Below are positions 38,400 through 44,657 of a stretch of 64,000 nucleotides of DNA, one piece after another. The notes beneath the pieces were generated by a model. It was not told where the DNA came from, did not search any database, and saw nothing but the letters and a program-made list of their open reading frames with translations. Origin of the DNA: Octopus vulgaris. Lineage: Eukaryota. The stretch spans positions 88,660,001 to 88,724,000 of the forward strand of contig OX597819.1 of the NCBI GenBank assembly GCA_951406725.2. The letters run 5' to 3'. Made by a program: the position numbers and the translations under genes. Position 1 is the stretch's first letter. Every line of letters begins with the position of its first letter.

Positions 38400-38576
38400 T
38401 CCTCTGACTTATGGCATTTGGTGAATGGGGGACTTTGCTGCCCTCAGCTGCATTTATTGCTGCAGGGTATCTTCATCCGGAACTTTTGACAGGAAGCGAT
38501 GCAGTCTCGTTACAAAGATGCCCACATCCACTGCATGCAATTCACTCATGCTTTGTGGGAGGATATTAAAAAGCTG
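38400..38576 (-). mobile_element. Old CR1/L2-like LINE 3' fragment (continues at 44175-44225), interrupted by the SINE and Tx1 LINE
   Basis: Joining across the insertion gives FNRLGFKSPQLFNILPQSMSELHAVDVGIFVTRLHRFLSKVPDE, which resembles a LINE RT-ORF C-terminus. Confidence 0.6.
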
Positions 38577-38798
38577 CGAGCTGGCAGAACCGTTAGCACG
38601 CCGGGTGAAATGCGTAGCCGTATTTCGTCTGCCGCACATGTGTTCGTGAAGTAAGAATTGCTGTTTCGTGGTGTTAATATTGTTAACAACTGTTGTTTCT
38701 TGTTAAACTGTTGAATAACTTAACTGTTGGAGTTTTCAATTGAAAACACTTAGTGCTTGTGGTAGCACGCGTTGTTCATTCCCCCTTTGGGGGGAAGA

Positions 38799-40330
38799 AT
38801 GTCGTCTAGCATGGAGCCTACCGTTGGAGCAGAAATACTTGTTTCTCCTGTTGAGAGGAGGAAATACATGTCCGGCGAGGAGCCAACTACAGACAAGAAA
38901 ATAGGGGTTTCCCCCGCTACAAGAAGGAATAGCAGAGAGGATAATATATTTGATATTTTTGGAGATGTGTCTGAGAGCTCGTCAGAACTTTCACCAGAAG
39001 AGTTTCCGACTTTGCCAGAGAACAAAGGCATTGTGTCGAAGAGAATAATTGATGTGCCTAGCATCCAGATAGAACCAAAAAATGGAAAAAAAAAAGTTTT
39101 GCGTTGGCTGCTGGGGGTGGAACCCAGATACTGTCGACGAATAAAAGTGAAATTATGAAATACAGCAAAATGATGGAAATAACTGACAACAGTGTGAAAA
39201 TTGAACCTCCGCAAAAGTTATTACAAGAAGAAAAGCAAAAAACAATAATTTTCAAAACATATTGTCTACAAAATAGAAAAATTGAAAGAATGTCAGAAGA
39301 GAAAATAGAAAAGTGCTTAAAGCCAATATTGGGCGACGTAGTATTTCTGAGAAGAGGAAAAAAATTCGGAACGGTGGAAGTAAGGTTCACCAATAAAGAA
39401 ATAGCACACAAGAACTCAGTTGAAACGTTGAAAACGAACGACGTGGAGTTAATACCCTATTATATGGGGATGAGGACGTCGCGAATAAAAATTACAAGGG
39501 TCCCGCCAGAGGTCGAACCTATGTGGTTGTTGGCGGCAGTCCTAATCAAAGAGGTAGAAAAAATTACTCTCCTCCAGGCTACCGCTACGGAAAACCCACG
39601 CTGGGATGGTAAAACAATTAATCTTCTCATTCAAGCGGACCCTAAAATAATTCAAACAATTCCTGAGACAATTGAGGTAGGGGAGGAGAACCTCGTGGTG
39701 TTTGTTGAGGGCCGAAAACCTCGATGTTTTTTATGTGGTCAATTAGGCCACATTCGAAGGAACTGCAAGGAAAATGAAGAAGAGGAGGAAGAGGAGAAAA
39801 AAGACAAAGAGGAAGAAGATAAAGAAGAAACAGATGAGAAAAAAACAACAAACAAAAGAAAAATACAACCAGCAACCCAGCCGAGAGCGGCGACTACTAC
39901 AGAACAACGACCAAAAAAGACTGCCAGAAGAGAAAAAGAAGAAAAAGGCATAATAGCCGTATACACTAAAGATACTGAGCTCATGAGAGACATTCAACTC
40001 ATAAAGACTGTAAAAAAAATTGATAACCTTTCAGAGGAATTTATCAATTACGACATATATGAAGTCTCAAATAAGACTTATAGAATTCTACAAAATAAGT
40101 ACAGAAAGACTGTATCTTCATTGAGATTAGATTTTAACAAGTCGATATTTCATGGATTACCAGCTCCGATCCCGCGAGAAAAGGAAAAGGTGGAGATTCC
40201 CCCTCCACCTGATAATTCTGTGTCGGTGGTGAGACGGGATTTTGACAAATCTATTTCCCAAGACCGTCCACCTCCGACCCTGGATAAAAAAAAGGTGGAG
40301 GGTCCCCCTCCACCGGACAATCCTAATTAA
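38799..40330 (+). CDS. Tx1-like ORF1 (gag-like nucleic-acid-binding protein, about 510 aa if one frameshift in the A10 run at 39086-39095 is repaired)
   Basis: The ATG at 38799 frame joins the 39104-40330 frame (KKSFALAA...) by a -1 shift at the A-run. Zinc knuckle CFLCGQLGHIRRNC, followed by an acidic/lysine-rich tract. Confidence 0.8.
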
Positions 40331-43300: not shown

Positions 43301-43744
43301 GGGATAAGCTCGCAAGACATGGTAAACGTCAGTCGCCGACCTGTCCAAGATACGGGGGGGACAGGGAAACCGTCCCTCACGCTATTGTTCAGTGTCCGGA
43401 GATAACTGAAATGTGGGCTTATGCTGAACATCTGTTGTCCGGCGAAGGAAGAGTACGGCTGTCGACTGAGTCAATTATAAAAATTGACCCAACCGGGAGT
43501 TCTAACGAACGAAGGTAAGAATTGTTTTCTCACGGTTGTAGCAATAGCAAAAGAGGCTGTATGGAATACTAGGATAAAAGGAATTAAGACAGGCAACTTT
43601 ATCTCTGGTGACAATTTACGATCCTTTTTTTCTTTTCATTTGAAAAGGAAACTGTGGCTGGAGAAGAGGTGTCTGTCAGAGTGTACGTTCCAAAAGAGAT
43701 GGAAGTATGTTGCACGAGTGTTGTGCGTGCAAGGAACCGTGTGA
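40342..43744 (+). CDS. Tx1-like ORF2: APE endonuclease-reverse transcriptase (about 1130 aa; +1 frameshift near 43491)
   Basis: EN motifs LNVHGL, ETR, IYAPN, GDSN (canonical GDFN), YLDRI, SDH. RT motifs KSPGLDG, FRPITLLN, LDQSKAFDRV, VRQGCPLSP, FADD, KLLGV. GGLG and a degenerate zinc finger CPRY(C)GG...HAIVQC follow; the C-terminus continues in the 43484-43744 frame. Confidence 0.92.
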
Positions 43745-44657
43745 ATAGACGAGGAAAAAAAAAAAAGGAAAAATAAAAAGGTATCAGCGGTAGATCGGGG
43801 CTTGTGGGATCGGAGCGTAACTTGATCATCGCTTCATTTGTATTGTTTTTGTACTGTGTATTCCATTCGATTTTTATGTATTGTATTTTATTTTTGATGT
43901 CACATTTATGTAAAATCATATCGATTCACTGATCCCATCAGTTGTACTGTCCATATCTATGTTTGGCCCCCGGTGGGCAATAAAGAAATTCGTATTTCGT
44001 CTGGCGTTACGTTCTGAGTTCAAATTCCGCCACGGTCGACTTTGCCTTTCATCCTTTCGGGGTCGATAAATTAAGTACCAGTTATGCACTGGGGTCGATA
44101 TAATCGACTTAATCCGTTTGTCTGTCCTTGTTTGTCCCCCTCTATGTTTAGCCCCTTGTGGGTAATAAAGAAACGGATATTAAAGAGCTGTGGGCTCTTG
44201 AAACCCAAGCGGTTGAAATATATAGTCCTAGTTATGGGACCCGTGTAAATTCCACAGAATGGAAAAAATTAGAGGAACTAATTAAGAACGAAAGAATGAT
44301 TTGCATTTTTATAGCATTCATATTTTAATTTTCTTTAAATACGCTTGACGTTCGGTCCACATTCGTTTCTTCACTTCTCTGTCGGTGTTATCTTTTCTTT
44401 CTTTTTATTATATCGTCTCCTTTTAACTTTTCACTATCAACACACCACCACCACCACCACCACCACCACGATCATCATCATCATTATAATTTTCAGTAAC
44501 AAAATTCATTTCGGTTAATGTTTACATCTTGACCCGGAAATGAAAATCCCCCAAAAAATATTGGAATGGGTGTAAAATAATGTGTAGGGAACGAATATGA
44601 AAAACAAATGCGCGCAAAGTAACGTTAGGTGGGGAGGACTTCGGAAAATTCACAAGG

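Follow-up and report, generated by a model that had tools for sequence, protein, structure and literature searches.

An L1/Tx1-like LINE lineage of Octopus vulgaris with one insertion site in the head of a tail-sharing SINE, and its probable part in SINE nesting

A window of 64,000 nucleotides (nt) from Octopus vulgaris (assembly GCA_951406725.2, contig OX597819.1, positions 88,660,001 to 88,724,000; "the window" is this whole stretch, numbered from its first letter) contains a long interspersed nuclear element (LINE) lodged in a short interspersed nuclear element (SINE). The LINE divides one SINE into a head at 38577-38634 and a body at 44007-44173, and a 16-bp target-site duplication (TSD) is found at the junctions. 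The lineage of this LINE is termed lineage A. SINE heads carry either C or G at the first base of the target site, which are referred to below as the C and G forms. The features of the locus, including the open reading frames (ORFs), are as follows.

38561-38576, plus strand: left TSD of the host SINE, 16 bp, identical to 44175-44190 at 15/16 positions.
38577-38618, plus strand: left part of the tRNA-like head of the host SINE, C-type subfamily, about 6 nt short at the 5′ end (blastn to the other SINE heads of the window).
38619-38634, plus strand: target site and left copy of the LINE TSD, 16 bp; 3′ arm of the head hairpin.
38635-43990, plus strand: full-length L1/Tx1-like LINE of 5.36 kb with two ORFs, a member of the youngest C-site subfamily of lineage A.
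38799-40330, plus strand: ORF1 with a CCHC zinc knuckle (PF00098, E 6e-5), frameshifted in an A-run near 39086.
40342-43518, plus strand: ORF2 with apurinic/apyrimidinic (AP) endonuclease, reverse transcriptase (RT) and zf-RVT domains, 1058 aa, shortened by a frameshift near 43491.
43948-43990, plus strand: 3′ tail of the LINE, without poly(A), common to the SINE and to sister LINE families.
43991-44006, plus strand: target site, right copy of the LINE TSD, identical to the left copy at 15/16 positions.
44007-44173, plus strand: right part of the host SINE with a B-box-like motif, core and LINE-type tail, the last at 44141-44173 (blastn).
44175-44190, plus strand: right TSD of the host SINE.

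The original prediction placed the LINE within the same SINE family whose 3′ tail it shares, and the head and body on its two sides bear this out. The LINE tail at 43956-43988 agrees with the SINE tail at 44141-44173 at 29/33 positions. The match is lengthened by blastn to 41 nt at 83%, with no similarity further upstream. Poly(A) is absent from the ends of both elements. The shared tail was also found on the other SINEs for which it had been claimed, which lie in the window as follows.

36494-36724, minus strand: G-type SINE nested at the target site of the LINE, with its tail running directly into target sequence.
36230-36493, minus strand: remainder of the SINE struck by the previous one, with target site, partly duplicated core and a different tail.
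27450-27680, plus strand: free G-type SINE with the shared tail and a 16-bp TSD (27425-27440 and 27681-27696).

A local duplication of 9 nt precedes the head of the free SINE. The nested position of the SINE at 36494-36724, at the target site of the LINE in a SINE with a different tail, explains why it has no ordinary TSD. The SINE head shows box-like motifs by eye and terminal pairing by eye and by folding, and no tRNA gene or tRNA family match was found for it with ARAGORN and Rfam. Two details of the original prediction did not generalize. The GCCC/GGGY stem proposed for the tail can form, but four tails fold no better than shuffled sequences (z of 0.56, 0.02, 0.02 and -1.22), and the best fold of the tail of the 27.6-kb SINE lacks it. 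Over 17 tails the stem is paired in 91% of cells, a value equaled by 31 of 500 shuffles, and covariation does not exceed that of shuffles. The CYG ending is seen by eye in the three window TSDs, but was rejected as chance because it occurs in none of the 14 TSDs found by script among 48 headed SINEs. This script cut the TSD of the 27.4-kb SINE to 11 bp and detected none for 34 of the 48.

Contigs from four sequencing runs, presumed to be of RNA, span the SINE head and the 5′ end of the LINE, and do not by themselves establish transcription or its start. Both ORFs of the window LINE are frameshifted. Among 39 full-length copies checked, an ORF2 of 1133 aa is kept in three (L034, L044 and L105), and both ORFs are whole in none. 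Profile searches of ORF2 gave PF03372, PF00078 and PF13966. ORF2 contains catalytic-type motifs, whose role we assume to be that of their counterparts in L1. When ORF2 was compared with solved structures, the E values were 5e-64 for human L1 ORF2p and 2e-20 for R2, the only LINE proteins in the comparison. The nearest named homolog is from Argonauta hians. The N-terminal AP endonuclease, the RT, the C-terminal zinc finger and the L1-type RT as closest match place the element in the L1 clade in the wide sense (L1/Tx1). Transposase_22 is absent from the ORF1 profile matches, and ORF1 is of the zinc-knuckle type, a feature of the Tx1 group according to the portion of PMC5203782 consulted. Kojima's criterion for target preference, as worded in the excerpts of PMC4494074 used here, is a multicopy target in more than 20% of flanks; the figure for the window LINE is 51 of 52 copies. 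From ORF1 type and target preference the LINE is likely a member of the Tx1 group; the tree described below holds octopus families only.

The genomic copies were collected without reference to the target by a DNA search with the LINE 3′ end (40 copies) and with a LINE-only 27-mer (51 copies), which gave 52 copies when combined. A pattern containing the target provided 12 more, for a total of 64. The same SINE nucleotide is the end point of 51 of the 52 target-blind young copies, of 63 of all 64, and of 30/30 among the best 30 matches to the LINE 3′ end. A generous chance estimate for insertion at the SINE site is about 1e-4 per insertion. Because of this enrichment, the half of the original prediction in which the SINE supplies the landing site stands. 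The single off-target young copy, L064, has its own TSD, which starts like the target site. The LINE thus targets one 16-bp site in the tRNA-like SINE head almost exclusively. Most hosts are SINEs with the shared tail, and three belong to a second SINE family with the same head. SINE sequence lies directly upstream of 13 of 18 5′-truncated young copies, at varied break points in the LINE. In 496 pairs from 32 copies, the last 400 nt of the LINE are 98.2% identical and the host SINE half 91.9%. The insertions are therefore independent and the flank lies outside the element. One pair with identical flanks among the 496 is a tandem duplicate. At L031/L036 (G000:C3:153.11-153.12 Mb) a whole SINE-LINE-SINE unit with identical flanks is tandemly duplicated.

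The SINE is also nested in itself. The site follows within 5 nt after 34,618 of 125,772 exact SINE tails (27.5%), and the array units of nested SINEs are spaced at 184 bp; the SINE at 36494-36724 is the example in the window. The heads among the first 100 matches listed comprise 52 with the C form and 48 with the G form, and a looser sample gave 22 C, 72 G and 39 ambiguous. Young LINE copies end in TT followed by the C-form site, whereas nested SINEs end in TA followed by the G-form site, and only 324 of the 34,618 nested junctions have the C form.

Older relatives of the LINE were obtained by a protein search, which gave 26 candidates: two from other families, four without a 3′ end and 20 lineage-A copies with one. 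The 3′ ends of these 20 lie at the G-form SINE site in 18 cases, at a near-identical motif outside a SINE in one, and off target in one. In three old copies the 5′ junction is intact, and each of these lies in a G-type head. LINE tails were found at 26 of 30 loci recovered with the G-junction pattern. A tree was calculated from 55 rows (22 of the 64 C copies, 19 G copies, one off-target copy and 13 outgroup rows). Lineage A is a single branch (100/100) in which the G copies are basal and older, with longer end branches (0.023-0.082). Of the C copies, 20 of 22 fall in one nested set (96/95), and two transitional C copies lie among the late G copies. The window's subfamily is thus a later branch of lineage A. 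The oldest lineage-A tail agrees with one SINE tail at 32/33 positions, where the window copy agrees at 27/33. SINE cores are 5.5-6% from the majority, similar to the old lineage-A copies, and the ages of activity overlap, approximately, as these core distances and the branch lengths are different measures.

The old lineage-A copies share the G form with the nested SINEs; therefore, the lineage likely mobilized the SINE during its G phase. The original prediction that the LINE mobilizes the SINE fits the lineage on this ground but not the window's young subfamily, with its 324 C junctions. The LINE-SINE loop likely holds for the lineage and not for that subfamily.

We consider it probable that a site-specific L1/Tx1-like lineage, in its older members, copied the tail-sharing SINE into the same site of other SINEs. 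In the proposed mechanism, ORF2p would nick the bottom strand where the site begins and prime reverse transcription on an RNA ending in the shared tail. When a SINE enters a SINE, the new complementary DNA (cDNA) would anneal to the homologous upstream head and leave one head with extra 184-bp units; such annealing would account for the one-head products. Each added 184-bp unit would bring a new target.

A number of observations weigh against this reading. Trans-mobilization and nicking by lineage A are predictions from sequence, as is the one-head joining step. No LINE with the exact TA end of the SINE at the site was found in searches that covered 27 tails, 1 (a SINE), 6, 30 and 20, together with the 30 loci of the G-junction pattern; lineage A ends in TT. 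A SINE head is absent upstream of most truncated old lineage-A copies. The exact site is missing after about 70% of SINE tails, and junctions containing two heads are rare (37 against 34,618). Junctions between two SINEs of the tail1 type show no age gradient (5.7% against 6.0%, p 0.5), and divergence is the same in C-type SINEs (5.5%, n=16) as in G-type SINEs (5.5%, n=50). A degraded sister family, L307, matches the SINE tail over 54 nt at 87%. LINE and flank identity correlate (Spearman 0.50, 153 non-independent pairs), putatively through age. The endonuclease also differs at several positions between G and C copies, so guidance by RNA is not the sole reading of the switch in site form described below. 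As a side observation, the truncated old copies (L395-L413, L373-L393) are mostly without a flanking TSD, and a few of their 5′ flanks look by eye like inverted ORF1.

Nesting of the SINE may instead have been driven by another sister LINE, lost or undetected, with lineage A as a mere lodger of little benefit to the SINE; we regard this as unlikely. The shared tail also occurs in several sister families of LINEs whose targets are different, and some of these tails are closer to the SINE than that of the window copy. In sister family B, ATT microsatellites are the target in 26/26 scored loci (of 30). Four of 27 LINE-type tails (L226, L229, L230 and L241) are found at another fixed position of the SINE head, roughly 30 nt upstream of the main one, at which 1,626 SINE tails also end. 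The remaining sister families lie in further repeats or are scattered. The relics L307, L340 and L341 match the SINE tail over a longer stretch, and a search with L307 as the query gave 10 relics. These tails, the TA end of the SINE and the contrast between about 100 detected lineage-A copies and more than 125,000 SINE tails favor such a lost partner. Against it, lineage A is the only LINE at the site among the 27 + 30 + 20 + 7 sister-family loci read, its old copies have the same G form and SINE-like tails, and SINE-to-LINE copy ratios are commonly high. SINE 3′ junctions fall into several classes and the tail is common to sister families; therefore, more than one LINE probably served the SINE as a partner. 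SINE insertions away from this site were probably made through sister LINE families whose targets differ.

The sister families were characterized further. Family B (L195-L224; for example G000:C47, C50 and C4:93.80-93.83 Mb) has an open ORF2 of 1145 aa and head-to-tail arrays of about 5.87 kb, and looks recently active. Family F (L283-L301) has an open ORF2 of 1132 aa and arrays of about 5.27 kb, and each of its subfamilies ends at a fixed site in other repeats. The sister LINE L277 (G000:C10:35.09 Mb) ends about 30 nt upstream of a frame whose start we take to resemble histone H3. At L344-L347 (G000:C14:73.5-74.5 Mb), four LINE-like 3′ ends are nearly identical and have one downstream flank in common, which makes them either a segmental repeat or another fixed target.

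The 184-bp arrays could also have arisen mostly by tandem duplication at the DNA level, or from a small number of multimeric master SINEs that retrotransposed. The rarity of two-head junctions and the lack of an age gradient among tail1 units agree with this proposal, as do near-identical units or repeated heads in some arrays; at L162, L175 and L180, heads alone are repeated every 65-66 bp and end at the target site. Adjacent array units are, however, no closer than random pairs (medians of 0.918 and 0.910), with 3/51 at 98% identity or more. The 146 junctions in the fetched loci continue into the same SINE in 97 cases and into the second SINE family in 35, with 14 ambiguous. In the 37 two-head junctions, which have the 16-bp duplication, a full second head begins exactly at the position where the LINE starts. 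All 17 distinct two-head loci viewed have a G-type or array-junction target, and in 11 of them a tail-plus-site junction lies downstream. The second-family junctions, the two-head junctions and the dissimilar adjacent units favor repeated insertion over local duplication. In addition, C-form junctions track C-type heads (10/16 against 9/44, p 0.004), and off-site SINE TSDs often start with GGT (6/14). We therefore judge an origin of most arrays by duplication or from master SINEs to be highly improbable.

The change from G to C sites within lineage A was examined at the junctions. At position 13 of the LINE TSD, the left and right copies read T and C in 17 copies and C and T in three (p 0.003). 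The junction into the LINE 5′ end is uniform among copies. C-type heads are present in 41/41 full-length young copies scored, including three in hosts of the second family, of which 0/16 free copies sampled have a C-type head. Two truncated young copies, L109 and L183, lie in G-form targets, and their right side is still C. The one-directional TSD difference, the uniform junction, the C-type heads and these two copies therefore point to target bases carried on the LINE RNA. Of 11 informative truncated copies, which are unable to donate a head, nine are C-type (p 0.04 against 0.52); the preference for the C site is therefore real, though not absolute. That SINE head, LINE and SINE body form one composite mobile unit, with the constant flank part of the element, would suit the 41/41 C-type heads, the three second-tail hosts and the part of the left TSD that follows the LINE, but is largely refuted by SINE flanks far more diverged than the LINE, truncated LINE copies behind SINE heads, the separate TSD of L064 and the absence of a TSD flanking a truncated LINE plus SINE unit in all 20 cases tested.

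A 13-bp hairpin of the SINE head (z of -4.4 and -3.1) has the target site as its 3′ arm. The two bases diagnostic for G-type and C-type heads pair across this hairpin, as U-G in one form and G-C in the other. This base-pair change is one subfamily event and not independent covariation. Fewer C-type than G-type heads run into arrays (3/16 against 24/50, p 0.045). Under the site-specific lineage A reading, the LINE RNA probably has target bases at each end; these would steer insertion toward the matching form of the site and give the G-to-C switch, and the RNA structure in which the diagnostic bases pair would hold the site nearly constant. A closed LINE-SINE loop with a moving target can be proposed tentatively and with some doubt. 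The lineage would cut the head hairpin of the SINE that it mobilizes, self-insertion would multiply the site into tens of thousands of arrays, a compensatory change would yield a variant that is hit less, and the LINE would follow through the base at its RNA end, with specificity guided in part by RNA.

Comparable systems are known. L1 and Alu insert into the A-tails of earlier copies, so that a SINE creates targets for the LINE machinery by which it is moved; the preference there is for loose T/A-rich tails, unlike the exact internal site in octopus. The 5′ end of R2 is joined by homology. R2 differs from the octopus LINE in its restriction-like endonuclease and its host-gene target. Excerpts of Kojima 2015 (PMC4494074) supply the comparisons that follow. 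R2 is co-transcribed with 28S rRNA, and target sequence on the RNA has been proposed to strengthen specific integration and uniform 5′ junctions. The closest case is the crocodilian Tx1-Mar/SINEU pair, in which LINEs and SINE, like the octopus pair, have one preferred insertion site located in another transposon. That partnership was inferred from the shared target and from age; several families use two sites per target, and some crocodilian LINEs bear the small-RNA head of the SINE. The crocodilian target is a third element, Mariner-N4_AMi, whereas the octopus target is the SINE itself. The SINEU preference is loose (13-90% of copies), whereas the octopus site is exact to the base. According to these excerpts, no LINE with the SINEU-1 3′ end was found in crocodilians, whereas the octopus LINE and SINE have a common tail and copies of the SINE are nested within one another. 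Tx1L in Tx1D, Keno in U2, and Kibi and Koshi in microsatellites are likewise two-ORF AP-endonuclease LINEs with family-specific multicopy targets. Octopus sister family B at ATT repeats resembles Kibi and Koshi in this respect. The targets of these four are not LINE-dependent SINEs, unlike the octopus target. By analogy, the octopus LINE would work like the target-specific LINEs of the Tx1 group, and most like Tx1-Mar/SINEU, with its dependent SINE as the target.

The known octopus SINEs OR1 and OR2 are tRNA-derived (Ohshima and Okada 1994, via PMC4758252 and PMC4824008); the passages of these sources drawn upon give no partner LINE or target preference. The window SINE may be OR1 or OR2. A 2026 repeat annotation of O. 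vulgaris (PMC13282606) lists L1-Tx1 families and, in the part available here, has no target analysis. No cephalopod description of a SINE-targeting LINE or of SINE self-nesting was found in the literature, with Repbase and Dfam outside the search.

Two further features of the window were recorded. A second abundant family of short repeats, unrelated to the SINE and with internal simple repeats, occurs at 11388-11701, 16012-16419, 23447-23838, 29216-29615, 37392-37707 and 44665-44972. Several long inverted matches at 89-96%, at about 19,400-25,600 and 50,250-56,800, suggest that some kb were duplicated in inverted orientation.

The persistence of target-specific LINEs is usually attributed to insertion into harmless multicopy sequence. 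Here the safe site of the LINE is its own parasite, which itself makes more sites. The G-to-C switch in one lineage, together with sister families that combine one tail with many targets, provides a natural series in which the contributions of the endonuclease and of RNA-DNA pairing to LINE specificity can be compared, a question relevant to tools for site-specific gene insertion. The 184-bp SINE arrays influence how copies are counted and dated in repeat annotation. It is likely that LINE and SINE feed each other. If true, this would account for some of the SINE expansion specific to octopus and for the formation of the 184-bp arrays.

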